Source: Carcharhinus amblyrhynchos
Lineage: Eukaryota
Length of the DNA: 64,000 nucleotides
Assembly: GCA_965287045.1 (NCBI GenBank)
Contig: OZ336885.1
Location: 62,806,001-62,870,000, forward strand
Direction of reading: 5' to 3'
The notes beneath the pieces are model-generated. The model was given only the letters and a program-made list of their open reading frames with translations, ran no database searches and had not been told where the DNA came from. Below, piece by piece: positions 3,234-63,676 of this stretch (positions are counted from its first letter, which is position 1; each line of letters opens with the position of its first letter). A program made the position numbers and the translations under genes.

Positions 3234-3260
3234 AAGATAAAATAAACGACCGAAAAGACG
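3234..3260 (+). CDS. 27-nt micro-exon, D class, (E)DKINDRKD
   Basis: ttttctatttctttcacag|AAGATAAAATAAACGACCGAAAAGACG|gtatgc; exon and flanks resemble 60034. Confidence 0.75.
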
Positions 3261-15200: not shown

Positions 15201-18200
15201 TATCCATTCGACACCACATCCCTCTTTCGATAATGCTGTCGTTTTCCGAACGATTCCATGGTCTGGTATGTTGAGTTGCTAGTCATGCCCTGATATCAAC
15301 CATGCTTATTAATGGTAACAATATCACGCTTCCATACGCCAAACCATAACTTCAATTTAGCAGTGTTACCTGTTAGACTACGATTAAAGTAAAGGACGTC
15401 CACGCGTGCCTTACTCGCATGATACTCAAAAATTCTGAACTGATTCTGAGATTCTTCCTTTACTGTGATATTACGTATCTCGATCTTTTTAACATTCTGA
15501 TTCTCCACCTCCTGCCTATCTTGTTGGCACTACATTTTACTACCCACTAAACCTATCTGCAACGCTATTGTCCCCAATCTGATTCAGGGCAAGCTCTTCC
15601 CGATTGCGCATATCCCACTTTCCCCAGAAATGTGGAGCCCATCAGCTAACCTTCGAATCACCGCTCCCATAACAGCATTACAATTCAGATTTTGGAGCTG
15701 ATATTTCTTATGTTCTTATGTTCTTATAACTTCAGCAATGGAAATTCTAAACGCCTGACTGCAATTAGATTTATCGCTCCACTTAATGTAATTCAAACTG
15801 GTGTTGGTATGTTATATCACAATTTCCTTTCTCTTATTAAAATTTTGTTCATCGACAGTTATACAGTAATCGCCTGTCTTCATTGATAATTTATTGATAA
15901 TTGTGGTGTACCTGTTTTCTAATTCTCACAGGATTCCTATTCTTTTCCCTCGCTCTCTGTCTCTCCCCCCCCCCCAACACAACACTCCCCCAGCCCCTCC
16001 CCCGCCCCCAACCCCTCCCATATGAACACAGCAACTTAACGTCTTCTGGAAGTGCGGCAGTATTTTTCATTCATATCATTCTTCTCACAAGCCACGTCAA
16101 TTCAACGTTCGTCTGCTTACGTTTTTAGCTATATTTTTTTCTTTTCCACTTCACGCATCTCAACTTTGTATTGGCGTCGTTTTGGATTCAGTATTGGTAA
16201 CACATCGTTCAGCAATCGCAGTGGTTTATTAAATATTGTTTTTTTATCAATTTTAATTATTGGCTTCCCTATATCCGATTTTTTTTAATAGTCCTCAATT
16301 TTATTGTTTGTTTTAATAATCATGAATTGAAATTAAACGTGTTATTCGGCATGCGATTAGTGCAAATGTATATGTCAGATCAGACTGATGCCGCATTCGT
16401 GGGAATATGTTCCAACACATAAATGAAATCAGCATGTTTGTCCATCACAGAAAACCTGTTGAAGGAAAAAGAGAAAGGTATTTACCGAGATTGACGGAGT
16501 GTTCGCAGGAATGAATTGTGATTCCAAAATGAGCGAAACAAAATGGCAAACAATGAAGTGGAAATATGTTTTCGAATGCTTCTCTCCGACTCTCATCCCA
16601 CATTCCTCTTACATCATTCTACATCACATCGGAGAAGTGAACTGATGAAAGCAAATAAATGGCATTGGGAAACTTTATGACGGCGCTGAAAAAAATGGCC
16701 GTATATTTCCATAATTTGTAAATACCACAAAGCCCACCGTTCGCAACAAACAGCCGTTTATCGTCCAACGCAAAAAAAAGTTAAATCGATGTCAGTTTAA
16801 ATTTAATTTGGTAGCCTTGGCATTTTCTGCATAAATTCTTACGGCTGTTGTATACTGCAAGGAAAAAAAAAATCTGCATGGAATTTCGACTGAAGTATGC
16901 CACATATTTACAATATCAATTGAGTAGTATTTCCTTTTAATTTCCTAACTTGAAAATCCGTTGGCGTTCGCAGTTACAAAGGAAAGATGTTGTGGTCTTT
17001 CTTAGGAAGACACAAATAAGAAGAAGCGAATAATACTGTGCATTTTTAAGAACACATACTTGCCCATCATATTATTGTAGACGGTCACCATAAGGAAGTG
17101 TGTGTGTGTGTGTGTGCGCGCGCGCGCATATGTGTGTACGTGGAAGTGCAACATGACAATGTATCTTTTGTCTCAGAATTGCAGTCCAAAATATGTTATT
17201 TGCATATCTAAACAGTTGGGCATTGATGTTGCAAAACCAGCATTTGTTAGCCTCAATTACTTTGCATCTTTATAATTGGCGCTCATAGTCTCTCTTTTCA
17301 ACCTCAACGTTTGTTTTCAGGTTACTGATTCGATAATTTTCGGCTCAGAATTCCACCAAACCACAATATTAAAACGTTTGCATTGTAATCATGCTTTGTG
17401 GATATTGCTCTCCATATAAACATCCCCAACTCGTTTGGCCACGACACAATCGCCACGCTTGTAACATTCAGTTTGCCTGCCAAATATCGACAGGATTCTT
17501 TTGTTTTTTTTTGGTGCGAGCTGCAAACAAAGTTCACACTATCACCCCAGCAAGATGTGACACTCGTTTTGAAAACAAAGAGTTGTGATTCTCCCAAAAC
17601 AAAAACAATTGTCCAACGAGTGCAAGACGGGAGTAAGTTAACCTGACCTCGTTCCCCTCCCACACAACCCAGGCCACACGGATATCCTACCAACTCACAG
17701 ATAGTAGGGCTACGAACCTCCTCAGGCCAGCACCGATCACGTGCTCTCCCCCCATTCCTCCACTTCACACACCTGCCCCCGCCTCCCCCCACCACCCCCC
17801 ACCCCATCAGCCCTTTCTCACTCCATACCTCTGGCCATCCCTTATCTCCCTGCCGCCAGAACGGTTTATTTGAATTTACATAGGATTCGTGTGCAGTGAC
17901 AGGAGCTTTAACAACCGGCTCGGGCAATGGTAGTTTCTGGAACAAGTGTCTTCATTGCTGCATCTCAAATATTACTAAACGGCGTTAGACATGCTCTAAG
18001 TATTGCCTTCAGTTGATGTGCGATTGTTCGCAAAATGAAGCAATTGATACTTCTCGGTGATTTAGGAAATTGCATCAGAATGTGGAAGCGGAAAATCCAC
18101 CTCGCCAATTTTTCAAATGTGGGCTGCGATAACTTTCCCAGTTTCACACAGGTGTGCTGTGCACAACGAAATTTGAAATTATCAATATTGATGGAGCATC

Positions 18201-19115
18201 GAACACTTCTTGTTCCTCAGTTGAATGACACTAGTCATATCCTGTCAGTCGGTTCGAACAGTCTTTCCTTTGCGAATCAACAGTTTTTTCAGGATGATAT
18301 TTGGGACAGTAATTGTCAGCAGCTGAACATCTAACTTTTTGAGTGACGTAAGATTTTTTTTTCACTCTACCAGCTCCGAACCAATGATTGCAAATTATGT
18401 TTCCAAACTATTAATTTTGCTTATATGAAGGGAAACAATAACCACTTTGATTAAATGCCTCAACTTATTTCTACCAATGTGTCGAATTAAAGTGTTTAAC
18501 ATGTTTTACGTTTCGAATGAGTTACGCAATCACAATAATGTTTTTAGTGTGGATTGGGTCAAAACTTTTTCTTTATTCACCTTTTTTTACAAGTTCCATG
18601 CAATAATGCGCGTCATATTGAATTCATGCAATCGGATGACGCAGAACACTATTTCAAAATTGAAATTTCACGTTTCATTTCACGAAGCACCATCGAGGAT
18701 TGCGCACTGAAGGATTGAAATAAGGAGACGTTGAGACAGGAGATACAAAGGAAGCGGTGGAAGTAGATTAGGCTGTCTCTAGGCCGAGTCGTGCACGAGA
18801 TGCACGCATATATATGGCTATGTTTCCAGTGTGGTAATTATGATACATCAGAACTCGATCACTGAACTTTAATTGGAGTGTTTCGGGGAGGAGGGGGGGG
18901 GGGGTGGAATTAACTGTGCGACACAGCAGCTACCACCAAACACAAGCAAAACTTGATTAAAAAATCTAACGCTCAAGGTGAATTCGAGGTTAGAAACTTC
19001 TGATGCTAAAATGTCAAATGGGAACGACAGAGAACCGAGAAAAATATATTTATTTTCTGAAGAGGGACATGTCTCAAATTTCAGGAACATAAGGAAATGG
19101 TAAAGGTTTTAATTG

Positions 19116-19156
<41 letters not shown>

Positions 19157-22100: not shown

Positions 22101-25100
22101 TGTTGGCAAGTGTGAGGTGGTCCACTTTGGTAGGAAGAATGGTAGGAAGGATTATTACTTACGTGGCGAAAAACTGCAGCAGGCGACGGTGCAGAGGGAC
22201 CTCGGGGTCCTTGTGCATGAGTCGCAAAAACCCAGCTTGCAGGTGCAGCAGGTGGTCAGGAAGGCGAATGGGATGCTGGCCTTCATAGCGAGGGGGATTG
22301 AATATAAAAGTAGGGAGGTCTTGCTGCAGCTGTATAGGGCATTGGTGAGGCCGCAGCTGGAGTACTGTGTGCAGTTTTGGCCGCCGCACCTGCGCAAGGA
22401 TATTTTGGCCCTGTAGGGAGTGCAGAGGAGATTTACTAGGCTGATACCGGAGTTGAGGGGATTGAGCTATGAGGAGAGGCTGAATAAACTAGGCTTGTAC
22501 TCGTTAGAGTTTAGAAGAATGAGGGGAGATCTCATTGAGACGTATAAGATGATGAATGGGATGGATAGGATAGAGGTGGGGAGACTCTTCCCGCTCAAAA
22601 AAGACAGTAGGACTAGGGGGCACAGCCTCAAGATAAAGGGGAGGCGGTTTAGAACGGAGTTGAGGAGGAACTTCTTCACTCAAAGGGTGGTGAATCTCTG
22701 GAATTCTCTGCCCGTTGTAGTGGTGGAGGCTGCCTCGCTAAATATTTTTAAGAAGCGGGTTGATGGGTTCTTGATAAGAGAGGGGATTAAGGGTTATGGG
22801 GAGAGGGCGGGAAAGTGGAACTGAGCCACAACAGATCAGCCATGATCTTATTGAATGGCGGGGCAGGCTCGAAGGGCTAGATGGCCTACTCCTGCTCCTA
22901 TTTCTAATGTTCTTATGTTCTTAAGTGATATGGAGGTAAGTGGAGATCTGAGTATTAATTTGAATGACCAGTGACGATCAAAATGAATAGCCCAGCAGAC
23001 TCGGGGGGCTGAATGACCTTCTCTAGCTTCAGTTCCTATGTTTCTAAACAGGAGGATCCGGAGGAGACGGAAGGAAATACACAAAAAAAGTAAACTCAGA
23101 GAGACAGTCAACGAAAGCAATATCTGAGCTCAGATCGTTGGTGTTCTGAGACAGCATTGATAACTACGCGGTGAGGCTGCAGTGCTAAACAACTTAGCAA
23201 TGGATTTTCGACAAAGAGGCATGGACGATCGAAGTTCAAACTTAAGTCAGCTGGGATTGAATTACTGCATGAGGGACTACCATGAGCTCTGGGACACTTC
23301 AATTAGCGAGTCAAAGTTCGCTGACATTGAATGAAAGACGACCAAAGCATGGCACGGTTTTTGCTGAATGAAGCCAAACAAAGCTGTTCACCTTAACTGC
23401 AAGCATATTAATGTGTTACGAAGTCAAAACATGATTGCCTTGGAAATGTTCGTTGTAATCACGTATGCTGCGGAAATTTAATGCTGCAGGCTTCTTGTGA
23501 CGCGAGCGCTGGAAATCGAAATATTTTTAATGCCCAAATTACATTCGATAGGCACTTACAGCAATGAATTGCCAAGTGCGTCCTAAATTGAACGGCTGAC
23601 TTTAACCGTTTCTTCGACCGAGGGTGCCAAGGTGCTCCGAAAAATCTCGCAATTGGTCTTAATGATTGCTCAACTCACGAACGCACGACTTCTGTACTTG
23701 CAAATGTACAAAATCAACTAACATCACTTTATTTTAATCATGATTCAGCCTTAGCCACGTGTCAAGAAGCTTTAATGCAATCAGGTAAGCCTCGTAACAG
23801 GATCTTTGTGAAACGCTGGGAGATTACAATGAAATAAGATAACAAAGAACAAAGGACAGGAACAGTTCGACGTCTGTGCCGACCATGAATTCTGTCTAAA
23901 CTAAAACGGTGTTTACTTACACTGTCCTCATCCTGCCATGCCTATCCGATTCATGTATTCTTCGAAGTGCCCCTTATATGGTACTATCATAACTGCTTCC
24001 ACCGCCTTCATGGACAAGACTTTGCAGCCAGTCACCAGACATTTTACAAAAAATAACTAGTCCGCACGTAACATAAACTTCTGACTTCTTGCACTTGATT
24101 TTTCTACCGACACAAAGAATATCTGACTAGCGATTCTGTTCCTCTCATTCATAACCTTGTAAAGCTCATTGCGTTGAGAATTAATTGGAAAAATGATAAT
24201 GCTCTTTAATCCGGGCAGACGTGAGGCAACGCTTTTTGGATGGTCCAATGCGTATAGGGAATATACGGTAAATGGTAGAACGCTGAGGAGTATTGGCTCC
24301 ATCGACATGTGGGCATGTATCCCCACCGAACCCCCATATGTTTGGACTGTATAACAAAACCAGAGCACCTGGAGGAAACCGACGCAAACACTGCGAGAAT
24401 TACTAAAATCCACACAGACAGTGGCACAATCTCGGAACTGGTCTCCGGAGCTTTGAGGTGATGTTGTTACAACTATGCTACCGTGCCGGCTAATACCATT
24501 TTATATCGACGGTTACCGATACTTTCAACACGTATCCTTCATGTTGACAGGTACGTGACCGCCCTGAATTACAATTAAAAACGTTTCAATGACTCCCACA
24601 TGTCGAATGCCGTTTATTCTTCAAACAGCTTTCCCGAATCTAACCTCGCCAGGTTTTATCTATGATGTTATAGTGAGGTTTTCCCAATTTAGCAACTTCA
24701 TCCAAGAGTCACTTTTTTCTATATCCAAACGGCACTGAAAACTTACAAAAATATTGAGTTTGTTCCCGAAATGCCCTCCTGCTGAATGCTCAAACACCTG
24801 GTCGTCTCACTGTTTAATTTTAGGACTGATATGACTTGTTCTTGCGTTTGCGATCTGCATAGTATATCAAGACATCCTCAGAGATGCTTCACACATTGTC
24901 TACCCCATCGAAGTAACAAACAGTAACTGAGTTCAGGTCAATATTTGGAAATTTTCAATCACCCACCACAGCAACCCTGTTGTTTTTGCATCTTTCCAAA
25001 ATCTGTCTGCGTGCCTGCTCCTCTATCTCCCTCTTGCTGTTATGAGGGCTGTCATAAATCTCCAACATTGTTACTGCACCACTTCTATTACTGAGCGCTA

Positions 25101-28100: not shown

Positions 28101-31100
28101 CTGTGTCAAACGATTTCAGGAAGACCTAGAGTTTCCCAGGTGGTCGATTCTATGTCAAACAACTTCAGGGAGACCCACTTCTTATTACATGTTGCTGGGC
28201 CGGTTTCTCCCACAATGTTACAGTGAAGTCTCTCTGTCACTTGTATCGGATGAGCCTCTTCCATTTATCGCTGGAGGGGTTCTTCCACTCCTCTCTACTT
28301 AGTAGGCATCGCTGAGACGACTTCTCCCACAATACTCAAGTAACTCCCTCTGCCCCTTCTATCAGCTTTTTTTTTATTCCTTATCTGCAACACATCCGCA
28401 AACTGAAATAATATTATTTATGAATTGTTTATACTTCCGCATCAAAATATTATCTTATAATTTGTAAGTGTGGAGCATAACAACTCGGTCAGGCAGATGT
28501 AATAAATTATTACGATACATTGTTGATGAACATTTCTGAAGATTTTGTCTTCTTCCAGAGTCCATACGGGTCAGTTAACGAATTGAAACCTGAATCATGA
28601 TTTTGGATTTATTTCGAAGAAGGAAAACAAATAAATTTGCGAGAGGCTTGCTTTGCTTTGAAACTCATGTGCTTCCCAGCAGTCATAATTATACAACAAA
28701 GATAAACTGTTAATCAAAATGTTTCCGAGAAATCAGCTTTGCTGAGGAAGGTTATGAAGTGCTTCGTCCCGTGGAGGACGTAATGTTTTTGATATTCGAT
28801 CCTCCATCAGTTCTTGCCTCGTAACATATCTTTAATGTTCATGTTTGTGTCTTTTTTTTTCAATTCTGGCAAAGTGTCAACACCGTTGGTACCGTTCCAG
28901 CCTGAAAGCAGCAAACGTAATGTCATCCGTAAATTTATATCTGATTGTATTGAAACCATACTGATGGAACAATCACCTATTTACAGTTATGGCTATGGAG
29001 TGTCCATGAAAACTTTCGCAAATTTGCATTAAAAAGCAGTTTAGGCCATGTCTCTTTTTGTTGTTGTTGAAGGTTCGAAAAGCTTAAAATCCTCTCTTGA
29101 TAGCTTGTCGTTCACGTTGTTTCATATTATGTCGTTTCCTTACAACTGTTTGCTTATTTAAGTGTCCTTATCCATTTACGAAATTGTTGCGTCAAAAATC
29201 ATGTACTAAAATTAAACATGTTATTCCGCATGTAAAAATAAGACAAATGAATGCATTAGACGTAAATTATGCCACAACCTTTGGAATACTTTCAATGCTG
29301 AAGTTAGATTTCCCCTGAACAGAAGAACACTTGAAAGAAAAAGAGAAAGGTACTTTCTGACTTTGGGTGCTAAGTAAAAATGCTGTTAATTGGGCACAAA
29401 ATGACAATTAATGGAGTGAAAACCTGTTATCTATATCTGTACAAACTGACAAGTCCTCCTCTGAGACTTCTCATTGACCATATCCTATTACGTCATATCG
29501 AGCCAGACAGTTGATGAAAACAGATCAACTGCCTTGCCCTCGGTGGCAAAGTGGTTAGCACTGTGGCCTCACAGCGCCAAAGACCCTGTTTCGACTCCTA
29601 GCTTGAGTCACAGTGTGTGCAGATTCTGTACGTGGAAAGACATGCTGGTTAGGCGCATTGGCCGCGCCAAACTCTCCCCCAGTGTACCAAACAAGCACCG
29701 GAAAGTGGCAAAGAAGTTTTTTTTTCCACAACTCCATTGCACTGTTAATGCTTGACATTAATAAATAAGAAGTAAATAAAAACAACCTCATGTCCAAGCA
29801 AAACACTCAAAACTTGCAATATTTTGTTCATAACATAGAGCTCAAGGGTGAAAAGCAATAACTATGAATGATTAGACAAAACAATTGCATAGATTGACAC
29901 ATGTAAGTTTTTTTCTATTTAGGGAAGCTCTGCGCTAGTTGAAAAATTCAGTTCTTGCTTTGCAACATGTCATGCCGGATGGTTTTATTTGGTGCATACT
30001 TGACTTCTTCTGCAACCTTGCCCCTGGAGTAATGTTATATCAGGTGTTTTGATTTTACCTGGTCAAAAAAAAGAATGTTTTGCATATAGTTCCCCACATT
30101 TGTTTAATTTAACGAAAAAAAAAACACTCTTTAACACTGACACGCCAAGCTGCCTATTTCCGTGTTTGGACACTATTCGACGTTTGATCATTGCGATTCG
30201 TAATATAGTGTAATTTTGTGTAAGTGTGATTATTTCCGTGTGTGCCTGTATCTGTGTGTGTATGTGAGTGTGTGTGTGTGTGTGTGTGTTTGTGTGTGTG
30301 TGTATTGTTTATCCTTAGTGGTCATTTGTGAAATAAAGAGTTTGTGTATGTCATGTTCTTTTTTTTTTCTGTATTTGAGCTTTTCTTTGTTAGATAGGGA
30401 GTGGGGTATTGTTTGTATGTGTATGTCTGTCTGTTTATGTGCCCGATTTTTTCGGTAGGCCAAAAAAAGTAAATATGCTTTTATGTCTGTGATAGAAAAT
30501 CGGTAAAATGCATTAAAAACGTGATCATTACACCTAATTTAGCAAGAGAGAATGACAAACGGTAATTTGATGAATAAATGTAACATCTAAAAACATTGCA
30601 GAATGAAAGAAGTTTGTAATGAGAAGCAAAAACACAAGCGGAAATCAAAAGCGTTGTAATAAATTCAGTGTTTCAACTAATATTTAGTTCAGAGTATCCC
30701 TTAACACATGTACTCTCATGAGTAAATGTATCAAGGGATATCGGGAACGGGCAAGGAAGTAGAGCTGACTGCAGAAAAAGATCAGCCCTGATCTTATTAA
30801 ATTTCGGAACTGGCTCGATGGCTTGATGACCTATCCCTGCTCGGAGTTCCTGTGTTCATACGTTTTGAGTTAAGTATTTTGATTTATGTCATTACGTTCC
30901 AATAAGAAGCAACACAGTTTCCGTACCGGTGACAGGGACCCATAGCAGGAAAAAGACATACACAATGTCATCGAGCAAAATATTAATTGCTACTTTCGTG
31001 AAACAAACATTTTGCTAAGATAGTGGTGTGAGACAGTAGAAGAAAAGAGGGCACAAGAAAACAAATACTGGAGTTGAGAATGGAGTTGTCATGCAGATCA

Positions 31101-45264: not shown

Positions 45265-45302
<38 letters not shown>

Positions 45303-51300: not shown

Positions 51301-53883
51301 GAACAAGTAAAAGCACTATTCCCCCTCCTAACCAACCTGAACCCTTTTAACCACCACATCACCCTTCCCTACAAGGGAACAATATTTCTGTCTTCCCTAA
51401 ACAGCCTTGCAGTCACAGCATGTTTGCTGACAGCCCTTCCACAACAACCCGGGTGTCCATGATGCATCTGTGTCAGCTTTGGGAGAGACAAACCCAGAAG
51501 CCCAGAAGCTTGCTTGAGGACAGCTATATCCTGGTCTCCAGCAGATCACCGTATGCCCAAGCCCTCGGATGGGACCCCCTCTACCCAATAAGCATCAGCG
51601 ACAGTGATTCGTTCACGGTGTCATGACCCAGAAGCCTCAATACGAAAGGTGCCCACATTGTGAATGTCTCTATGTTGGTGTGTTGCATGCTGGATGATGA
51701 TGACACTTCAGTGGTCCTGCTCTCAGAGGTTTTATCAGTGCTTCCCTCTGAGATGTCACCTAAAGGGTCGTAGGCAGTTACCTCCAGGGTAGCGAAGGTG
51801 GCAGCAAATCCCGAATAGTTGGGCTCCTCTGGGTCTAGAGCTGGAAAAATAGAACATGCATTTGGGAGAGAGAGAGGAAAACATTCTCTGCAGCAACGCA
51901 GGTATTTAGAGTAGAGCGATGCTTGAGGGTGAGCTTCTGCTCTCTGCATGCTGTTTGCTGTCCTGGCTGCCAGTGTCCGTTCGGTATGGCCCATCATCCT
52001 ATGACAGCTTCATGGTACACTCATCCATGCTACTCCGTTTCCACATGTCATGCACACCCCTACCAAACGGTGACGTCTCCCGTGCTTTGCAGAATTTGTT
52101 TTTTTTTGTGGGAATATAAGGTGGACAGCAAGCATTAACATATTGACCACAGAATGGCACTCATTGAGGGATGAGGGAAGTGATTAAATTCTGTTCACAT
52201 GTTGCATGTCCTTCTTGTGTCTGAGTAGGCTTGCAGATCCGTGCCACGCATTTGTGCAATTTCAAGTTTAATGTCACTCAGCCTTGCTGCTCGCAGACGA
52301 TCGTGCAGTTTATTTTTGGTCACTTCCTGCCAGAGCACGGTGGCAGGCTCCTGGCATTCACCACATCTGTCACCCTCCCACAATGCCATGGCAAATGCAC
52401 CCTTGATTTAGGGCGCTGGCCAGTGAGCAGATGATCACATCTCTCCTCTACGCCATCTAGGAAATCCTACTGGCCTGCCTACAAATATCTGGAGAACGCT
52501 TTCTGTGTGTCGATCTTTTTGGCGTGACTGGGTGTGGATCCATTCCTGCAGCTTATATAGAGCTCTGGCTTATTAGTTGAGTGCAGGGACAGTGAGTGTG
52601 GCCAGTTGATAGCACACGCCTATGCCAGAGTTTGAAGTTTTCATTCAGTTGAGTGTGATTCATCCCTGAGCATTTTGATTGGCCTCCATTCAGTCGGCTG
52701 TTGTGTCCGGGTTATGGTGGTGGCGGCGGGTGGGGTGGGGCGCGGGGTGATTTTAATAATCAGGATTCTTAATTGATTCGCTGCTGTGTTCGGGGGGAGG
52801 GAGTTGCAATAACAAAGAATCCAATTCAAGACAGGGAATGATTACAACCAGGGGTTCTGCATATCAGCACAGTCCTAGTCCTCTGCAGGGCAGCGGCGAG
52901 GACATTATGTTCAAGGGATGGGGAGATTGCGTACCTGCAGTATCCGGGTACATGGGGGCATGATGTGAGCGGGCAGCCATGCCTCCTTGTGGGGAACACG
53001 GGGATGTGGGGGCGGGAGGTCTATGATGCCAGCGGTATCTCTACACGGTTTTGTTGGGCTTGTGGGGGCCAATAATGAGGCCAGGGATGAGGTGTGTGTC
53101 TGTTGCGGGGTGGGGGGGGGGGGGGGGGGCGGGTGGAGAAGCGAGGGAGCGGTGGTTGTGGGGCCCAGCGATTAGTTCGAGTGTTTGAGGACAGTGATCT
53201 ACTATTTGCCGCGATCTACCACCGTTATGCTCATATGCCGGTTCCCAGTCATCCCATCAAATTCAGGCTCTTTGCCGCGAATGAGCCCCAGCTCCCAACG
53301 TTTATTGACATACACAACTGGGCCCTCTGCAGTGCACATAGTACAGAGATTCGGGTGAAAAGCTGCACTGAGAAATCATTCGAAATTTGGAACAAATCTC
53401 CTATCAATTCAGCACTTTTGTGAGACTGGCGGCCATTAGCTAACATTGTTGTTGCGCTTGTCTTCACACGTTAGATTAGTACGCACGCAGTTCCCTTTTT
53501 ACATTCAGAGTATTGTTCGTACTCCATTGCATATCGGGTTCAATTCATAAATGTTGTATTAATATGTATGCCCCAAACAGATGACAGAATATGTGAACTA
53601 AAAGCAGGTATGTGAGTGAATGCAGAACATCAGCTGAGACGTTTTCAAAGCATACGTTTTCATGTTATCTCTTCCATAGACTATTTAAAATCTACTTTAC
53701 GTATTGTTGAATAATTAACCTAGTTTTTTAAAGAACGTCATTGAATATCGAAAAAATGAATAACGAGAAAATGGTAAAAGTCGTAATTAATCCAACGTCC
53801 TCATGCAAGTAAGAACGATGGGGCTGCTACAAACAGGAGCAGAATCAAGAAACATAATCACGTATACACACGTATACACACGT

Positions 53884-53920
<37 letters not shown>

Positions 53921-56900
53921 TGTCACATAAGGAGCCAACTTTGGCTTAGAATGTGCGTTGTGAGATAGAAGAATGAACTGTACCTCAAATCGGAATAAAT
54001 GTCTTAAGTGAAAAAAAAACAGAGAATCACAGTACACCTCAGATGGGAAGTTGTTGTTTGACACAGGCACAAATAAAATTGAGCGGAGTGGTGTTGGAAC
54101 TGTGTTTCACTATTGGAGATTTAAACAGTGCACGAAAGTAAATAGTGTTCAGTTTGACAGATTGTATAAGACTAGGTCACAAACTGATTGCCGTATTCAA
54201 GAAAGGAATTGGTAATACTCTGGGGTATTCTCCATGCTGTGGCAGGAAAATGTTTGTTCGATTACTGGAATCAGCGATCGCATGTATTTTCAAAATTGTG
54301 TTTTTCTGACCCGTGGAAAAAAAAACAGGAGTTCATTACAATTATTTCAGAATGGTCGATTTTTATCCCCATGTTTCGTGCGCTAGTACTCAACAGGATA
54401 CACACAGATAGTAAAATTTCGGACTCTAAGTATGAACATTACTTCCAATGTTGACAAGAAAATCACGACAAGCAATAACTTAAAACAAGCATAGATTTTT
54501 ATTTTAAGTTACTTTCCAGAATTGGCCAAGTGGCAAGAAAGTTTAAAGGATGCAGGTAAACACTGAACTCCGTTGAACAATGACTGTTCCAATGTTTTTT
54601 TTTCATAAGTGCAATCTCTCTTTAAATTTAGTTCGTACTGCATGTAACTGTTGCATGTCTAACGTATCAAAAACATGGTATTAACACATAAAACCCAAGA
54701 AATTTCATATCATCAAGGAAAAATAACAAATAGTCACGAAGGAACGGACATAATCCATTTTTCCAATTTGTCAGCTCACAAAAATAATTATGTTTTCGTA
54801 CATTAACAAAGTACTACCTAATTCGACCATTGTACCCACTCAAAAGGGAAGCTGATATGCCACAATCTGTGGTGCACGTGCTTGAATTTGACATTCCTGA
54901 GAAATGTGTCTGATTTTAAGGAGATAATAATGTCGGAAAATAATTTAAAAATGCATATATACCAAGACAAACCGGATTTTTCTGAGTGACATGATTTGTT
55001 CAACAAACATTTTCATCACTAATGTATTGAGAAGGCTGATGATTGTTATTGATGGATGATCCCAAATTTTGTTCATTGTAGCGAATCCATTTTTACGCCA
55101 AGGGACGAGGTTGAGATTAAGTGTGTCCTTTCGGAGAGTCAGTGATGTCTTCCATGCCTATATGACATTCCAAAAGTATTTGCAAAACATCATAGATAGC
55201 AATTAATTCCAATTCCATGACGTTCAGCCTTGTTCTGGCTTTTTCATTGCCGAAACAATACTTGATGCCCAATAACCAGCACAGTTTCATGTTGGCTGGC
55301 GTCCAGACTTTGTAATTAGTTACCTTGCGATAAATTAAATTGTGATTTATGTACATGCAAGGCCTATTATTCGACAGATAAATACGAACGCCCTCCAGCC
55401 GTCCACTCATAAGCACGTGGAAATAGACAAACACGGCAGTACTTCCTGACACTCCCACCAATAAGCACCTTTATCCCTGACACATGGATAGGCAATAACT
55501 CGCGGCGAAGTAACATCTTGTTTTGCAAAATGGCATACTTGTGTTCAAACTACTTCGTAGCGGTTTAGCTCTTTTCTCTGAATTATACTCCAGAGACGTT
55601 TCTCCAGCTAATAGTGCTGCATCCTTTTCATGGTTGAGTGACTGTGATTTCACTTGCCATTGCCTCAGCTCTGTTTTTCCCTTTTTAGCTTTCTGCAGAG
55701 ATCTCTGCTTTTCTGGTGATAAGCAATTATTAACACGGGTGAATTGGTTGCAAATTTTATCTGTGATGGAAAAAATAAAATCTAAAGGATTGTTTTCACA
55801 TTATTCGTGTGATCACTGCACTCCTGATACATTTAATAATTTCCTTGAGAGTCGACACATTATGAAATCATTTAGCCGTTGCTGTGAATCGTTTAACATG
55901 ACCTTATGTGTAAAACCCTCCATTACATAGATTTTGGAGTTTTGGAATTTGTGCGATTGGTAAAATTGAAAACTCAAATGCAAATTTGGAAGGTAGTTGA
56001 TTCTCATTTTTCTGCATATAACTCAGGTGATGGAAAAGTATAAGTGAATGAAAGGATAATGTTTCATCTGGGACCTCCCGAACGTTTTCCAGGACATACT
56101 ATCTTCCGCCATGCGGAAGAGTATTTTTTTCACAAGAGAAAACGGCAAATGCATTTGCCTATGACAGCAAAATCTGAACAACTCCCTATTATCCTGAAGA
56201 AAATATTACAAAAAAGTAATAACTGTTCCATAACAGGGCTCTTTCAACACTTACGTAAGAACAGGTGCTCACGTTCTTAACGATGCTGTTCAACTGGAAT
56301 AAATAATCTAACAGCAAGCTATCTTTTTCAAAAAAAAACAAGCTAGGATTTGTACCGCAGGTTCGCTTCTAATTTGTCTGCTTGGTGTACATCGATATTT
56401 ACTGTTTCATTTCGCCGTTCGGGAAATAAAAGCCGCTCCTTGAAATTCCAGCTTTTTTTTTAGCCAGATGACAGATTTCAAGCTCTCCACGAAACAGCAT
56501 TCTTGTTCGTTAAATTGCCGATGACCCGATCATCGGTTTGAATCTGTCGTGCCAGTTTTCCAGCCCATGCCATGCTAAATTTGCTAAGCCAGGTTAAATG
56601 CTTTTTGAATCTTTCGTCACTTCGCAGGAGTTCAACTTCGTAAATTACTGATATCGTGCTTTGAATGTTTTTTTTTCCCTGACTGATTTTGGGATTTGTT
56701 TCAGAAATATGCCTTATAAAAGGCATTTTTGTTTTCCGGTATTTTCTTTAGTATCTGCAAATCGAATACTGATATCGCGTATGATGTTCTATGTATAAAA
56801 TAATACAAATGCATAGATTTGGCAAAAATGATGCCACTTGGACAATTAACATTCTCCCAAAAATGTTACTGATATTTCGCCCTTGCAGAAGAAAAATTGA

Positions 56901-59900
56901 AAGGTAAAGAGAAAGGTTATTTTATGTCAATTAATGTTTGTTGATATATTGAAAATGAACCTGGTAGTGGGAACAAAAAATTCGATGCCCATGAATGTGT
57001 GATATGCAGGAATATATATTCGCTGCTATTTGTATAGGATTAAGTTACGGCATAGGATATAATAACCTGCCAATCAACTGATCAGTACATCAGAAAGTGC
57101 TTCGTACACTTATGCCAATGCCCGACTGCACCATCGCTAAAATTTAATGACCGTTCGGTCGCACATAGCTCCTAATTGCAGTGAAACTGCAATTCTCAGT
57201 CGTTATGAATCAATCCTGTAGCATTTCCATCATTATATTTGAGTTCCGACATGGAAAAAAAATCTTCCAACAAAATGAGGCTTCAGTGGCGAAGCTGTCG
57301 ACTTCCTTTTCACACTGATACAGCAAACATTTTTTTCAAGTGTTTATTTTTTTCATAACTGTGGCAATATTAGCATTGATTTTTCACCATATACCCAAAT
57401 AACTGCACTTTACACACAAAGACCATTGTGTGCCTCGCAAGTATCAAAAAGAACAGGTGTGTTTTATTTAGTTCCAGTCATTGCTAACCTGCCTCCTCAC
57501 TTACCAAACATCCTTTCGATCTTCATTTTGTTTTTCATTTGCTGTGTTAACTGTCAGTAGCTGTTTCGTCAAATGTCACGTGTTTCCTGCACAGCCGACT
57601 TGTGCAAATGCAAAGTTCCTTCAAATGTGTTATTTCAAAACGCACATTGCCAAAACAAGCCATCGTCACATTCCGGATTGGACAAACACTGTGACTGCAG
57701 TAGTCATTATCAACACAAAGTAAATTCTGATATACTTGGTTAACCACATGGAACATGTGCCAGTACTTCATCGTAAGTGTTTTTTTTTATTGTATTTCAC
57801 AGCGGCAATATCCGAAGCTAGAGAGAAAGGTTCGTACAGATACCGCCTCAGAGCTGGTCGGGTCAAAACCGCCCCTTAACTGCCACTCATGAATGTCAGC
57901 TATTGCAACATTTTTCGATTCGACTTCAAGCTTTCAGCTCTGAAGTGGCTCTAAATGCACTTTTGTAGACAATACCAAAGCAGTCCCATGCAGCTGTATC
58001 AATGAAATTGTGACCGGTGGTCTGGTGATCAAAACAAACTAGAGTTGTTGTTCTATAAACATGAGAATTCTAAAGAAGAGTTGGATACAGAAAACCAGGA
58101 TATTATCCGTGGAATGTTTGCGGTGGTGTTCGGACAAAAAATATTGAGCAAGTTATCCATCTCGACATCTCCTGAAATCGTGAACAACAGCAAGTATGGT
58201 GTCCTCTTCAATTTGCGAGATAACTGATAATTCTGCAGGCAGAATTAACAATAAAGGATAAATGATTTGGTTTGATTGAGGTATCGTGATAAACGTGTGC
58301 ACTCCAACAAATGCCGTAAGCCGAGACAGGTATGCACAAAGGTTGTTATGTTTGCCTTCGTATGAACATTAACTCAGAATAAATGCAATCTCTATTTCCC
58401 TGCCCAATCATTCTGCGCTCATTAAAAATGACATGCCGATCACATGCGCCTCTTCCCCGGCTCTAAAGTTATAGGGCCACAAAATTCACCTTCTCACAGA
58501 AGCAATTTGGTAAGAGATTCGCTAGTAAACCGCGAATGTCATTATTAATATGTTCCAAAGCTGTGTCGTGTTAAGAGGTGTTTCAACTCTCACTGGCCCT
58601 TTATTCAGTGCACTTTTTGACCGAATGTCCTGCTGATAAAACTGATGTCAATTTCAGAAGGCTAATATCTCTATTTGTGACGATGACGAGAATGATACCT
58701 TGCTGAGAGGGATGAGGGCGGGGGGTTGGGGGGTTGGGGGGTGGTGGGGGGAGGGTGGACTTCCACCGTGTGCCCACGCATCATACAGAGAGGCAGGTAG
58801 CTTTTGCTGCTCGAGTATTCCAAATCAATCACGTAATCAGACATATGCCAAGATAGTTTTTTTTTCTGAACCCCCTGACCTAGACAATTTAACATGTTCA
58901 TCAATGTTTTCAGTCACTTAAATCTTCATATTACAGCTTACTAATTATTAAATCCGCTTTTTTTGCTTTCATTATTCCGAATAGAACTAAACTCACATGG
59001 TCCAATATTGCAATGTACCGACGGCAGTTAGTTGTGGATGACGAATATGTAAGCAATCTTCGACTCAGAGAGGTGATAGATAGTGACCGATCCCAACCGG
59101 TGAGAAGCTCGGCATTTGTTGTTGACATTCAGAGCGCATTAAGTTGCGTGAACTAATATCAGCAATACTCTGCATAATACGACTAACGATAATACCAGCT
59201 CCATTGGATATAACAACAGCGTGTCTTTCGTAGAAGGCCAAGGATTAGGAATTCTGACAGACACTTCTCACCTATTATTCCACTAATTCAGGTAAAGCAC
59301 ACCGTTCAAAGCATACCACACAAACAGAGTTTGCTGTTCGAAAGTTCCAGTTCAAACATTTATTCAGACATATGCTACTGTCAGGGAAGATTTTGACTTG
59401 CCTAGATGACTGTTTAATCAAATCTCTCAAGCAGAATGACATCACCGAGGATCATGCACGCTGCTTGAAATAGACAACTATAAAAAATCAGTGATTCGCT
59501 CCTTCAGCACGTTAGTGAAGAACGCAGACTAATAAGTGTAACATTAATTGCAGAAACTCAATAAATCGCCTTCCACATCCCATATCAGACACAAAACATC
59601 TCCTTGCTAGAAGGAAAATAACAACAAATAAAGACAACTTGCGGCAAAATGGAGATTGGCCTGAAGACAAGGTATTGAGTATGATAGTAGAAATTGCTCT
59701 GATTATTTTCAATCTGCGTCACAATTGATGACTTATATGTTGGAATCGTGAGTGAGCAAATTCAAATTGTTTCCGTTCAAGGAGAAAGTATAATTTCTTT
59801 TTTCATATGGGAAACATGTTTCAATGTATTCACGTAAATTCCCAGTTATAAGTGAACACATTTTGCATTAATTTCAAATATGTATTCATATTGGCTTTCA

Positions 59901-60309
59901 AGGATCTTTTTATTTAGGATACCTGACATGCTTATTGCAGTGTAGAGTAAACATTTAGGTGTATTTAAATTGTAACTTTATTACATTAGTTGTTCATAAG
60001 CTGTGCTTGTACATTTTTTTTTGCTCGGAACAGATGACACAATAAACGAACTAAAAGGAAGTATGTAAAATATTTTTTTTTTAAATAATCGTTCCGACGA
60101 TGAGAAAATGTAATTGTATGACTTATTTTTGTTTATTATAGGAAATAAGCCTTTGTAAATAAACAATCGTATTTTAAAAGTTCGGTAATATTTCGATTTT
60201 ACAAAATGAAAAAAATAATGTGAATAAATTCTACTCGTACAGAGATAGATCAAAATGGATTGCTCCATACATTGATTCTAATTGAAAGTCCAAAAACAGA
60301 TGCATTGCA

Positions 60310-60381
<72 letters not shown>

Positions 60382-63300: not shown

Positions 63301-63676
63301 AATATAAGGTTGCCATAAGCATTGGCTTATTATTGAGTATCTGTTCCAAAAACGTAAGGATTTACATAGCAATAGCAGTGCGGTTGTATGGTAGATACCG
63401 TTGTCCTATTGTGTTGGTTGATTAAAGTCGGCATGGAGTAGAATTTCAAAATTGAATTTGAAAACAAAATAAATTAAACGAATGCCAAACAGTTTAGGTG
63501 TAATTCGAATACGTGGATTCTTACAGGAGCGAAAATGAATGCATCCTCCTCTGTCACAATGACCCTATAATTGAACGAATGTAATGCAGGTGCCAGTAAA
63601 TTCTCCTCAACAAATGTTTCTGGTTTGTTAACCTATCCAGAATTAACCCAGTGTCAAGCAAACTTGAATAATTCAC
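3234..63676 (+). CDS. Internal part of a multi-exon gene encoding a repetitive coiled coil, built from 16 micro-exons (start and stop outside window)
   Basis: Sixteen 27/30/36-nt AG..GT exons, all phase 1-1. Joined peptide: (E)DKINDRKD|[10 protein letters not shown]|ENLLKEKEK|[12 protein letters not shown]|EEHLKEKEK|[12 protein letters not shown]|EKKIKQLLE|[12 protein letters not shown]|EKRLREQEQ|AAEKDAKIK|DDRICELKA|[12 protein letters not shown]|EEKLKGKEK|AAISEAREK|DDTINELKG|[12 protein letters not shown]. No stops, and the heptad pattern runs across junctions. Confidence 0.8.
4390..4419 (+). CDS. 30-nt micro-exon, shortened C class, (D)KCREDLRHA
   Basis: caatccag|ACAAGTGCAGAGAAGATTTACGTCATGCAG|gtgagc; homologous to the 36-nt Cys exons but the acceptor is 6 nt downstream. 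Confidence 0.5.
5955..6094 (+). pseudogene. Probable decayed larger coiled-coil exon
   Basis: cacag acceptor, phase-1 frame [46 protein letters not shown] with one stop, followed by gt and a GT repeat. Confidence 0.4.
6230..8330 (-). mobile_element. Heavily degraded CR1 LINE spanning the N gap
   Basis: Remnants of CR1 RT C-terminus and ORF2 on the minus strand. Confidence 0.6.
6369..6496. other. Assembly gap (128 N)
   Basis: Run of n. Confidence 1.
8350..8930 (-). mobile_element. CR1 LINE 3' fragment
   Basis: catagaatc.. tail and degraded RT C-terminus. Confidence 0.65.
8985..9130 (+). mobile_element. Degraded tRNA-derived SINE (V-SINE/HE1-like)
   Basis: gttagcactgtc..gtgttcaat..tggagtttgtctgtcctacctgtg core. 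Confidence 0.5.
9235..9701 (-). mobile_element. tRNA-derived SINE (V-SINE/HE1-like) with LINE-like 3' tail
   Basis: Reverse complement of V-domain ggagaatgtgcgaactccacatagac..gggaatcgtacctggg..actgtgtcacaatgccgtccc. Confidence 0.8.
10522..11228 (-). mobile_element. CR1 LINE 3' fragment with (CATAGAA)n tail
   Basis: [42 protein letters not shown]; heptamer tail. Confidence 0.92.
11240..15170 (-). mobile_element. Decayed Harbinger/PIF transposon: nuclease remnant on minus (about 12550-14080), Myb/SANT partner remnant on plus (about 11240-12180)
   Basis: Minus frames [23 protein letters not shown] and WLRDKCCA match HARBI1-type motifs; the plus Ser/Thr/Glu-rich segment resembles 51600-51780; GC-rich subterminal region. 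Confidence 0.65.
15180..15730. mobile_element. Old CR1 remnants including an (ATGTTCTT)n tail
   Basis: tttcttatgttcttatgttcttat at about 15705-15727. Confidence 0.5.
16451..16477 (+). CDS. 27-nt micro-exon, K class, (E)NLLKEKEK
   Basis: tccatcacag|AAAACCTGTTGAAGGAAAAAGAGAAAG|gtattt; paralog of 29323 and 56889 including flanking intron. Confidence 0.8.
17098..17137 (+). repeat. (GT)n(GC)n microsatellite
   Basis: Direct inspection. Confidence 0.95.
19118..19158 (+). repeat. (GT)n microsatellite
   Basis: Direct inspection. Confidence 0.95.
20890..23047 (+). mobile_element. Old CR1 LINE (about 20890-21645 and 22924-23047) split by a young CR1
   Basis: Degraded RT motif (tccagatttacagatgat, SRFTDD); its 3' tail resumes after the young insertion. 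Confidence 0.7.
21647..22923 (+). mobile_element. Young 5'-truncated CR1 LINE, RT domain to 3' tail
   Basis: [29 protein letters not shown] and [14 protein letters not shown]; single TAG at 22414-22416; (ATGTTCTT)n-type tail. Confidence 0.97.
23052..23355 (+). pseudogene. Probable decayed large exon upstream of C exon 23749
   Basis: Purine-rich frame [51 protein letters not shown]..; same position relative to the C exon as in other units. Confidence 0.35.
23749..23784 (+). CDS. 36-nt micro-exon, C class, (A)[11 protein letters not shown]
   Basis: atcatgattcag|CCTTAGCCACGTGTCAAGAAGCTTTAATGCAATCAG|gtaagc. Confidence 0.85.
23845..24490 (-). mobile_element. CR1 3' fragment plus V-SINE-like element (about 24310-24490)
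   Basis: acaaagaacaaag tail; ccagagcacctggaggaaaccgacgca..ctaccgtgcc SINE reverse complement. Confidence 0.7.
24540..27000 (-). mobile_element. Old CR1 5' part (ORF1 and endonuclease remnants)
   Basis: Minus frame [33 protein letters not shown] resembles the CR1 ORF1 esterase region. Confidence 0.7.
26193..26642 (-). mobile_element. Young CR1 3' fragment, same family as 21647
   Basis: [35 protein letters not shown]. Confidence 0.95.
27798..28065 (-). mobile_element. RTE-clade LINE 3' fragment
   Basis: Minus frame [45 protein letters not shown] (C-terminal zinc finger), short 3' UTR ending GACGGACGAACAACACGAAGAAG. Confidence 0.8.
28082..28175 (+). repeat. Two diverged tandem copies of an approximately 45-49 bp unit
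   Basis: gtttcccgggtggtcgtctctgtgtcaaacgatttcaggaagacc / gtttcccaggtggtcgattctatgtcaaacaacttcagggagacc. Confidence 0.8.
29323..29349 (+). CDS. 27-nt micro-exon, K class, (E)EHLKEKEK
   Basis: tttcccctgaacag|AAGAACACTTGAAAGAAAAAGAGAAAG|gtactt. Confidence 0.8.
29540..29765 (+). mobile_element. tRNA-derived SINE
   Basis: A box tggcaaagtgg, B box gtttcgactcc, ttagcactg..cacagcgcca head, aataaa end. Confidence 0.8.
30238..30303 (+). repeat. Imperfect (GT)n tract
   Basis: Direct inspection. Confidence 0.9.
30720..30862 (+). mobile_element. CR1 3' tail fragment
   Basis: aagggatatcggg..gatcagccctgatcttatt. Confidence 0.7.
31181..31209 (+). pseudogene. Decayed D-class micro-exon copy (29 nt, frameshifting)
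   Basis: tag|ACGACAGATTGACGGAAAAATTCAGGAAA|gtatgg, DDRLTEKFR; about 950 nt before C exon as for 53581; no pyrimidine tract. Confidence 0.4.
31552..31783 (+). pseudogene. Probable decayed large exon upstream of C exon 32147
   Basis: tag..gtgatc bounded; frame [47 protein letters not shown] with stops. Confidence 0.4.
32147..32182 (+). CDS. 36-nt micro-exon, C class, (E)[11 protein letters not shown]
   Basis: atcatgaatcag|AATTAGCCAAGTGCCAAGAAAAATTAAAAGATGCAG|gtaaac. Confidence 0.85.
32570..32813 (+). mobile_element. Young CR1 3' fragment, same family as 21647
   Basis: Near-identical to 22678-22923. Confidence 0.95.
33010..34100 (-). mobile_element. Two old LINE fragments (about 33010-33530 and CR1 about 33575-34100)
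   Basis: [23 protein letters not shown] in the minus frame. Confidence 0.65.
34681..34707 (+). CDS. 27-nt micro-exon, K/D class, (E)KKIKQLLE
   Basis: ttttttcttgtcgttaacag|AGAAGAAAATAAAGCAACTACTAGAAG|gtgagt; strong splice sites. Confidence 0.85.
35501..35756 (+). repeat. 67-bp direct repeat (35501-35567 and 35690-35756)
   Basis: ttctc..gagcagtgtacctggtgg.tgtggtgagtggtt.attttccttggaagttcttcgctgta twice, 4 mismatches. Confidence 0.95.
38242..38400 (+). mobile_element. V-SINE-like body inside the CR1 3' UTR
   Basis: gtctgtgggagtttgtgcattctccctgtggttgtgtgggtttcctccgggtgttctggtttcctcccacacccaaaagatgtg. Confidence 0.85.
39092..40763. mobile_element. Non-autonomous DNA transposon, Harbinger-like (3-bp AAT TSD, imperfect TIRs)
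   Basis: aat|GGACCCGATTTACCAA ... TTGGTAAAATCTTACCC|aat; GC-rich interior without a credible ORF. Confidence 0.75.
39981..40122. mobile_element. Fold-back (hairpin) MITE-like element
   Basis: tgatgtggagatgccggtgttgga..caccaggttaaa pairs with tttaacgtggtg..tccaacaccggcatcacctcatca. Confidence 0.85.
41330..41542 (+). pseudogene. Probable decayed large exon upstream of C exon 41708
   Basis: Frame [41 protein letters not shown] ending at g|gtatgg. Confidence 0.35.
41708..41743 (+). CDS. 36-nt micro-exon, C class, (D)[11 protein letters not shown]
   Basis: ttctgtaatctag|ATTTGGACCAGTGTCAGGAAGCTTTAAAAGATCTAG|gtgagt. Confidence 0.85.
42130..42156 (+). CDS. 27-nt micro-exon, K class, (E)KRLREQEQ
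   Basis: ttgcttcctattag|AGAAACGGCTGCGAGAACAAGAACAAG|gtagac. Confidence 0.75.
42491..42517 (+). CDS. 27-nt micro-exon, A class, (A)AEKDAKIK
   Basis: ccttcttcacag|CGGCAGAGAAGGATGCTAAAATAAAAG|gtactt; paralog of 57803. Confidence 0.8.
43030..43310 (+). mobile_element. Degraded V-SINE-like element
   Basis: gcggcatggtac..agctttgcattttccc..caaagatgtgcg. Confidence 0.55.
44868..45208 (+). mobile_element. Young CR1 3' fragment
   Basis: [28 protein letters not shown]; (ATGTTCT)n tail. Confidence 0.95.
45268..45300 (+). repeat. (CA)n microsatellite
   Basis: Direct inspection. Confidence 0.95.
46550..47995 (-). mobile_element. Harbinger fragment carrying a decayed Myb/SANT-like gene (about 46570-47150)
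   Basis: Minus frames [37 protein letters not shown] and [12 protein letters not shown]. Confidence 0.75.
48113..48151 (+). repeat. (GC)n(GT)n microsatellite
   Basis: Direct inspection. Confidence 0.95.
48995..49166 (+). mobile_element. CR1 3' tail nested in the Harbinger element
   Basis: ggaattaagggttatg..ggaaagtggaactga..ctcgaagggctagatgacctactcctg, same family as 21647. Confidence 0.9.
50010..51260 (+). pseudogene. HARBI1-type DDE transposase pseudogene
   Basis: [63 protein letters not shown] and [11 protein letters not shown] across frameshifts. Confidence 0.9.
51420..52530 (-). pseudogene. Harbinger Myb/SANT-like partner gene remnant
   Basis: [17 protein letters not shown]-terminal remnant and Ser/Thr-rich exon [20 protein letters not shown]. 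Confidence 0.6.
53581..53607 (+). CDS. 27-nt micro-exon, D class, (D)DRICELKA
   Basis: tgccccaaacag|ATGACAGAATATGTGAACTAAAAGCAG|gtatgt. Confidence 0.8.
53860..53918 (+). repeat. (CA)n microsatellite with cacgtata units
   Basis: Direct inspection. Confidence 0.95.
54520..54555 (+). CDS. 36-nt micro-exon, C class with Cys->Trp, (E)[11 protein letters not shown]
   Basis: ttactttccag|AATTGGCCAAGTGGCAAGAAAGTTTAAAGGATGCAG|gtaaac; close paralog of 32147. Confidence 0.85.
56889..56915 (+). CDS. 27-nt micro-exon, K class, (E)EKLKGKEK
   Basis: ttcgcccttgcag|AAGAAAAATTGAAAGGTAAAGAGAAAG|gttatt. Confidence 0.75.
57803..57829 (+). CDS. 27-nt micro-exon, A class, (A)AISEAREK
   Basis: ttttattgtatttcacag|CGGCAATATCCGAAGCTAGAGAGAAAG|gttcgt. 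Confidence 0.8.
58050..58329 (+). pseudogene. Probable decayed large exon
   Basis: Frame [22 protein letters not shown] ending at cag|gtatgc. Confidence 0.3.
60034..60060 (+). CDS. 27-nt micro-exon, D class, (D)DTINELKG
   Basis: tttttgctcggaacag|ATGACACAATAAACGAACTAAAAGGAA|gtatgt. Confidence 0.8.
60313..60377 (+). repeat. Long (AC)n microsatellite
   Basis: About 32 perfect units. Confidence 0.98.
60780..60995 (+). pseudogene. Probable decayed large exon
   Basis: Frames [28 protein letters not shown] and [27 protein letters not shown]. Confidence 0.35.
62110..62730 (-). mobile_element. Old CR1 3' fragment
   Basis: [20 protein letters not shown] in the minus frame; CR1 tail. Confidence 0.8.
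62971..63308 (+). pseudogene. Probable decayed large exon upstream of C exon 63641
   Basis: tttttcccag acceptor; [47 protein letters not shown]; an internal gtgaga at 63010 would give an open 39-nt exon. Confidence 0.4.
63641..63676 (+). CDS. 36-nt micro-exon, C class, (K)[11 protein letters not shown]
   Basis: aacctatccag|AATTAACCCAGTGTCAAGCAAACTTGAATAATTCAC|gtaagc. Confidence 0.85.

Follow-up and report, generated by a model that had tools for sequence, protein, structure and literature searches.

Exon pairing and helical register in a probable shark gene for a very long coiled-coil rod

The stretch of DNA analyzed here, in the following called the window, comprises 64,000 nucleotides of Carcharhinus amblyrhynchos (assembly GCA_965287045.1, contig OZ336885.1, positions 62,806,001 to 62,870,000 of the forward strand). 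It contains a series of 14 microexons, and we consider it likely that they are part of one gene of about 850 kb encoding a coiled-coil rod, where the parity of the exons keeps the helical register and where selection acts on exon gain and loss.

Microexons of the window

The 14 exons were recovered by profile and splice scans between positions 16451 and 63676 on the plus strand. All of them are phase 1 at both ends, flanked by AG and GT, devoid of stops and either 27 or 36 nt long, and the exon observation of the preliminary description is confirmed. From 16451 the exon classes follow in the order K C K C K C K A D C K A D C, which comprises two C+K modules of 21 aa and two C+K+A+D modules of 39 aa; the C exons are 36 nt, and the K, A and D exons are 27 nt. 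The series starts with a K exon (16451..16477), followed by a C exon (23749..23784) with Leu2, Cys5 and Leu9 and by a K exon (29323..29349) that closes a 21-aa module. Another module of this size is formed by the C exon at 32147..32182 and closed by the K exon at 34681..34707. The C exon at 41708..41743, the K exon at 42130..42156, the A exon at 42491..42517 (core at exon residues 2, 6 and 9) and the D exon at 53581..53607, which closes it, make up the first 39-aa (21+18) module. The second one consists of the C exon at 54520..54555, the K exon at 56889..56915, the A exon at 57803..57829 and the D exon at 60034..60060. The last C exon (63641..63676) closes the duplication unit of the window, and the array runs on past the window.

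Outside this range, a 27-nt phase-1 exon of the D class at 3234..3260 on the plus strand (core at exon residues 4 and 7) opens the 16-exon duplication unit, and a C-class exon of only 30 nt is found at 4390..4419 on the same strand. The latter has a 6-nt in-frame deletion, both aligned copies being 36 nt, and is the sole exception in the window: the loss of two residues breaks a 21-aa module, and the exon is fitted with two extra stutters. With these two included, the 16 exons of the window give 159 full codons, in agreement with the peptide of about 160 aa reported earlier. The core residues proposed for the C+K pairs, running from Leu2, Cys5 and Leu9 to Lys19, stood for the most part, except that exon 54520 has Trp in place of Cys5 and that Lys19 is present in only three of the five K exons, the other two having Leu and Gln. 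Missed exons would have spoken against the 21/39 pattern, but no exon of 21, 27 or 36 nt with strong conserved splice sites emerged from 211 AG..GT candidates in the window. The best candidate outside the known set (51 nt at 18927) was rejected, since its acceptor has insertions in the two copies that align to it. At 3234, 29323 and 56889 there are tandem acceptors separated by 3 nt, making 24-nt forms of several K and D exons possible.

The introns of the window contain reverse-transcriptase-like (LINE) fragments at 21631-22824 and 36712-38038, as judged from the open reading frame list and the repeat family, and a GC-rich block with reading frames at about 49800-51900. We take the latter frames to resemble a Harbinger-like DNA transposase, going by eye.

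For analysis of the coiled coil the register was fitted by dynamic programming, which was not given the expected answer and penalizes only stutters, stammers and breaks; this home-made fit and the hydrophobic moment carry the coiled-coil calls in place of Marcoil or DeepCoil. Over the 14 exons the fit returned a continuous hydrophobic a/d register of 3-4 spacing with two stutters, no stammers and no breaks, and its score was matched by 1 of 1000 exon-order shuffles. The hydrophobic moment was matched by 6 of 2000 shuffles in 28-aa windows and by 1 of 2000 in 42-aa windows. Both stutters were placed on the second residue of an A exon (42491 and 57803, the second if the outer donor of exon 56889 is used), which is where the 19-23-27 spacing had been noticed in the two C+K+A+D modules. 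Leu would occupy position a and Cys position d, with Cys present in 33 of the 38 C exons of the core, where it might stitch helices by disulfides. Carried over to the 997-aa core of the larger array described below, the fit contains four breaks and one stammer. In the excerpts of PMC4786415 that we draw on, an 18/5 periodicity is a delocalised stutter, 2-residue insertions strain helices until breakage, and 5-residue insertions require two heptads.

Pairing of exons at the level of helix and DNA

An exon of 9 aa makes about 2.5 helical turns and one of 12 aa about 3.5, each exon thus covering roughly a half-integer number of turns, and the exons fall into two phase classes with the core starting at exon residue 2 (C and A) or at exon residue 4 (K and D). 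The idea that lone exons break the register while some combinations keep it was borne out by skipping exons in silico: single skips broke the register in 12 of 12 cases and skips of adjacent pairs in 0 of 11, triple skips added a stammer or a break in 10 of 10 and quadruple skips in 0 of 9. In the 98-exon core of the larger array the local hydrophobic moment, 0.38 with all exons in place, was 0.23 when one was skipped and 0.37 when two were. The two module sizes of 21 and 39 aa are both present, but the real unit is any adjacent pair, giving 21 or 18 aa; the figure of 39 is 21+18, because 12+9 residues make three heptads and 9+9 residues make 18, that is 7+11, a heptad plus a hendecad with one stutter. 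Outside the recently quadruplicated block the size of 21 is dominant.

The two phase classes alternate at 13 of 13 steps between 16451 and 63676, which was reached by 8 of 20000 shuffles, and at 38 of 43 steps in the older part of the array outside the four duplicated units, reached by 0 of 20000. Between successive C exons the short exons come in odd numbers in 35 of 38 intervals overall and in 15 of 18 intervals of the older part. At the ends of the array the alternation is missing, with 14 of 30 steps towards the far 5' end and 9 of 16 towards the 3' end, and there either the exon calls are incomplete or the parity rule does not hold. In a tail-to-tail paralog the dependence on order is weaker (9 of 500 shuffles).

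The array carries four tandem units of about 65 kb at approximately 62.69-62.93 Mb of OZ336885.1 with about 80-85% identity, the window corresponding to one unit; one of the four resembles a chimera of two others. One duplicate unit, upstream of that of the window, lacks exactly one C+K pair, namely the counterparts of exons 41708 and 42130, the clean gap corresponding to window positions 39494-42319, and one duplication junction puts a C exon next to the K class. It is clear from the exon order, the one clean pair deletion and the duplication junction that the pairing constraint is visible at the DNA level. Runs of three short exons occur eight times and runs of two only once (a weak call), where the eight trace to only about three origins. 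The A exons are nearer to K exons in DNA (0.48) than to C exons (0.25-0.34), and for that reason we rejected the notion that they are shortened C exons. Their phase is C-like, and since it is combined with K-like DNA it seems to have been adjusted.

All 50 exon copies in these units keep AG and GT and none has a stop, while under neutrality about 13-17 of them should be damaged and 5.7 stops present; judged by these copies, the microexons are maintained. The exon dN/dS is 0.66, and pN is 0.104 at core positions and 0.169 at other positions, values which come from non-independent pairs with exon 4390 excluded. Between units the identity is 82-86% in exon DNA and 84-85% in aligned intron DNA, and because exons are not better conserved than introns, conservation islands failed as an exon finder.

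Exon 56889 deserves separate mention. Together with its two copies at -12093 and -77542 (window coordinates) it makes up the only 3 of 142 exons in the array whose in-frame inner donor, located after position 56903, beats the outer one (7.4 against 6.9 twice and 5.6 against 1.9 once, with a matrix trained on the other donors of the gene), and in one copy the outer donor has the lowest score among all donors. Use of the inner donor would shorten the exon to 15 nt and remove four residues, upon which the stutter is gone in all three units and the module becomes 12+5+9+9 = 35 aa, or five clean heptads. From these scores the second 39-aa module may in fact be 35 aa or alternate between 35 and 39, a prediction made post hoc for a donor with a single origin. 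In the tail-to-tail paralog a module of 12+9+5+9 = 35 aa includes a 15-nt candidate exon.

The larger array and its B30.2 end

In window coordinates the microexon array spans about -588470 to +238767 and comprises 142 candidates, about 850 kb when the B30.2 end is included. Of these, 82 are 27 nt, 50 are 36 nt and 10 have other lengths, two of them 21 nt; about 40 of the 142 come from weaker scans and were included manually, and a 24-nt exon recognized later falls outside the counts. Read together they give a peptide of approximately 1450 residues without a stop. The array ends at a B30.2/SPRY exon at 63068075-63068595 of OZ336885.1, with a phase-1 acceptor at +262075 and a Pfam E value of 1.3e-15. 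It is the only plus-strand B30.2 exon within 1.46 Mb and likely the terminal exon of the array, so that heptad exons are followed by a terminal B30.2 exon as in butyrophilins, provided that they are joined into one mRNA.

In the same 1.46 Mb, which extends beyond the start of a head-to-head neighbour gene, no Ig exon was found with a local Ig profile in six frames (best E 0.18) and no RING exon with a profile covering RING and the next 150 residues or so (best E 0.59), the profiles being made from 21 Ig-bearing and 43 RING-bearing proteins. Neither did tblastn with Ig-bearing proteins give an Ig match at the locus, and a search limited to internal exons gave no transmembrane-like one between -660k and -586k. 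The nearest protein is a catshark model, XP_038668997, the orthologue, with 76% identity in B30.2. This model includes four of the last microexons, linked to B30.2, and starts in LINE-like sequence of the same class as that in the introns of the window.

A tree of 65 B30.2 domains, with the best-scoring 18 Ig rows and 26 TRIM rows as outgroups, placed 17 rows in one clade with 100/100 support: eight from this genome and nine others, including seven shark, ray and chimaera models. The domain of the locus is sister to the catshark model (100/99). On this tree the B30.2 domain belongs to a cartilaginous-fish clade apart from the sampled TRIMs and butyrophilins. Further clade models are from skate (XP_055510696), torpedo ray (XP_069775384-90), chimaera (XP_042191566-8) and basking shark (XP_078422387). 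Pfam found no Ig, RING or B-box family in six B30.2-bearing family models. The models of the cartilaginous-fish family are 175-945 aa and mostly partial-looking, and none has an array of such length; the protein searches, which are weak negatives in this respect, found no long orthologues of the array. The predicted fold of a 945-aa catshark paralog consists of long helices, short linkers and a beta domain (mean pLDDT 68). About 140 further B30.2 matches were seen in the genome, with large clusters on contigs C9, C41, C46, C53 and C73 of our numbering, and four non-clade copies placed on the tree group with TRIM/BTN domains.

The surroundings of the array contain several related features. The tail-to-tail paralog lies on the minus strand from 63148857 upward and has at least 59 candidate microexons up to 63.47 Mb, six of them 15 nt. 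The head-to-head neighbour, on the minus strand from 62193845 downward, has a candidate for a signal-like first exon and a run of 21-nt exons amid exons of 27, 30 and 36 nt. Non-helical, Pro/Gly-rich exon candidates of 27-45 nt, some of them duplicated, are present on the plus strand at 62.24-62.33 Mb and are likely linkers near the N-terminus. A retrovirus-like element with gag, protease, integrase and env-like pieces is situated between two B30.2 exons at about 63.090-63.094 Mb.

In the reading that we favor, the exons would be joined in a single transcript ending in B30.2 with mostly constitutive splicing, and each adjacent pair would restore the hydrophobic stripe as 21 or 18 aa. The rod would have grown by duplication of even-numbered exon blocks, the latest step being the four units of about 65 kb, and parity is probably enforced by selection on gain and loss of exons. 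The product would form homo-oligomers of parallel chains, likely dimers, in which Leu takes the a and Cys the d positions; the rod would serve to keep paired B30.2 binding heads at a distance of about 150 nm or more from a presumed N-terminal anchor. The rise of a helix is about 0.15 nm per residue, and the 997-aa regular core, most likely a parallel oligomer, would have a length of the order of 150 nm. By analogy with the short stalks of butyrophilins, the B30.2 heads are most likely shown at the rod end. As for the other end, the skate model begins with a stretch that looks signal-like by eye. N-glycosylation motifs are not enriched in the domain (1.2 per domain in 15 family members against 1.34 in 99 TRIM/BTN domains, p 0.56) or in the rod (6 against 4.8 expected).

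Alternative readings and known systems

The preliminary description proposed the exon set as a combinatorial tuner, where skipping of even-numbered blocks or a donor switch in exon 56889 would set the length and supercoil of the rod, and we hold this to be unlikely. The reading frame survives every skip, and 547 of 3797 exon subsets leave a clean register; exon 56889 and its two copies alone favor an inner donor, with removal of the stutter in all three, the paralog has built its 35-aa module using a 15-nt exon, and chicken BG tails vary through splicing according to the part of PMC5938342 used here. Against this, paired exons are separated by 0.4-12 kb and nothing indicates that they are coupled, and the inner donor, apart from its one origin and late discovery, is perhaps the sole donor used. 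Furthermore, isoform models of paralogs differ internally by lone 6-, 7- and 9-aa indels in three of three sets and never by 18 or 21, the lone exon being deduced from indel size in automatic models at mostly linker-like sites. Because these are automatic models of other genes with mostly linker-like sites, the indels weaken block skipping without refuting it. Reads of two runs over 54100-58600 cover introns and have no exon-exon joints; for this reason the runs must be genomic and are silent on splicing. A splice code as such, in which even blocks are skipped and the donor of 56889 toggles the stutter (39 against 35 aa) in a B30.2-tipped rod, is possible but doubtful; if true, splicing would tune the reach and supercoil of a shark immune-type sensor.

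Alternation can also be inherited from an ancestral two-exon cassette, and parity might then be a historical by-product of copying a 36+27-nt unit, with local breaks tolerated and the pairing unenforced today. The persistence of the 30-nt exon 4390, the loss of the order signal at both ends of the array, the weak sequence constraint and the four breaks and one stammer in the 997-aa core all fit such a history, which we nevertheless find quite improbable given that the A exons have a C-like phase despite K-like DNA, that three-exon runs exceed two-exon runs (the single two-exon run being a weak call), and that the only clean deletion took out a pair. A tropomyosin-like actin-binding repeat of 39 residues, as for the chicken zipper protein, has very little to recommend it. 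The top identity lag between 16451 and 63676 is indeed 39, but each 65-kb unit has only one or two stretches of this size, the second of the two modules in the window may be 35 aa, and for the older part of the rod (453 aa) the lag is outside the top eight. The suggested link to the tropomyosin period thus found no support; with lag 39 local to the duplicated block, the likeness is probably coincidence. The tropomyosin repeat of about 39 residues sits on an unbroken register. The BG tail was isolated as a tropomyosin-displacing protein (PMC5938342, in the part used here), while vertebrate tropomyosin is described as being without the yeast stammer in the excerpt of PMC11626781. Just as improbable is a genuine butyrophilin or TRIM with missed Ig or RING exons, of which the array would form the tail, or a set of several separate genes. 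Among solved structures the B30.2 domains of BTN3A1 come closest (E 6e-32), and two signal-like 73-nt exons exist on the plus strand at -637423 and -448440; however, such exons are common, twelve in 1.26 Mb with the two strands taken together, which is chance level, and the empty Ig and RING profile searches over 1.46 Mb, the separate clade with its 100/100 support and the six family models devoid of Ig and RING all point the other way.

Exon symmetry is commonly judged on the reading frame, and the exon order shows helical phase as a second layer, making the array a clean case, provided by nature, for testing how protein geometry shapes gene structure. New here are the parity tests and the stutter-removing donor, and sharp predictions for long reads come with the array, namely skipping in even blocks and a form of 15 as against 27 nt at one donor. 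The data also suggest that sharks, rays and chimaeras share a family of several genes for very large B30.2 rods. Databases name its members automatically after TRIMs or 'zinc-binding protein A33', and annotation keeps the rods only as fragments under TRIM names. The open-access literature searched gave no description of a cartilaginous-fish B30.2 rod family.

Among known systems the closest in construction is the chicken BG/zipper protein, which according to the portions of PMC4046983 and PMC5938342 used here has a long predicted coiled coil made from many small exons with split first codons, an exon number that differs between genes and a true heptad that crosses two exons. In the same portions most exons are 21 nt and encode a single heptad, a gene has 27-37 of them, and Ig-V and transmembrane exons are present but B30.2 is lacking; because 21 nt is one heptad, single BG exons keep the register. 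The shark array differs in having about 142 exons, mainly of 27 and 36 nt (only 2 of 142 are 21 nt), that work only in pairs, a B30.2 end and no Ig. Butyrophilins such as BTN3A1, the top PDB matches, share a heptad stalk followed by a C-terminal B30.2, but have an IgV (plus IgC) part that was not found in the 1.46 Mb of the shark locus, a B30.2 outside the clade and a stalk of a few heptads compared with a rod of about 1450 aa. TRIM39, TRIM58, TRIM69 and 'zinc-binding protein A33' likewise combine a coiled coil with B30.2; the RING and B-box of TRIMs have no counterpart here, with no RING exon at the locus and neither domain in the family models. Guinea-pig enterophilins have a long leucine zipper and B30.2 without Ig. 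Tropomyosin is a coiled coil with a local period near 39 residues in common, whereas here 39 is 21+18 with a stutter, there is no whole-rod repeat, and the rod carries a globular end domain. The unnamed chondrichthyan coiled-coil and B30.2 models are in the same B30.2 clade and have a helical rod ahead of the domain. Judged by Ig, exon size and RING, the array falls outside the BG, butyrophilin and TRIM families; it works like a chicken BG tail and ends like a butyrophilin.
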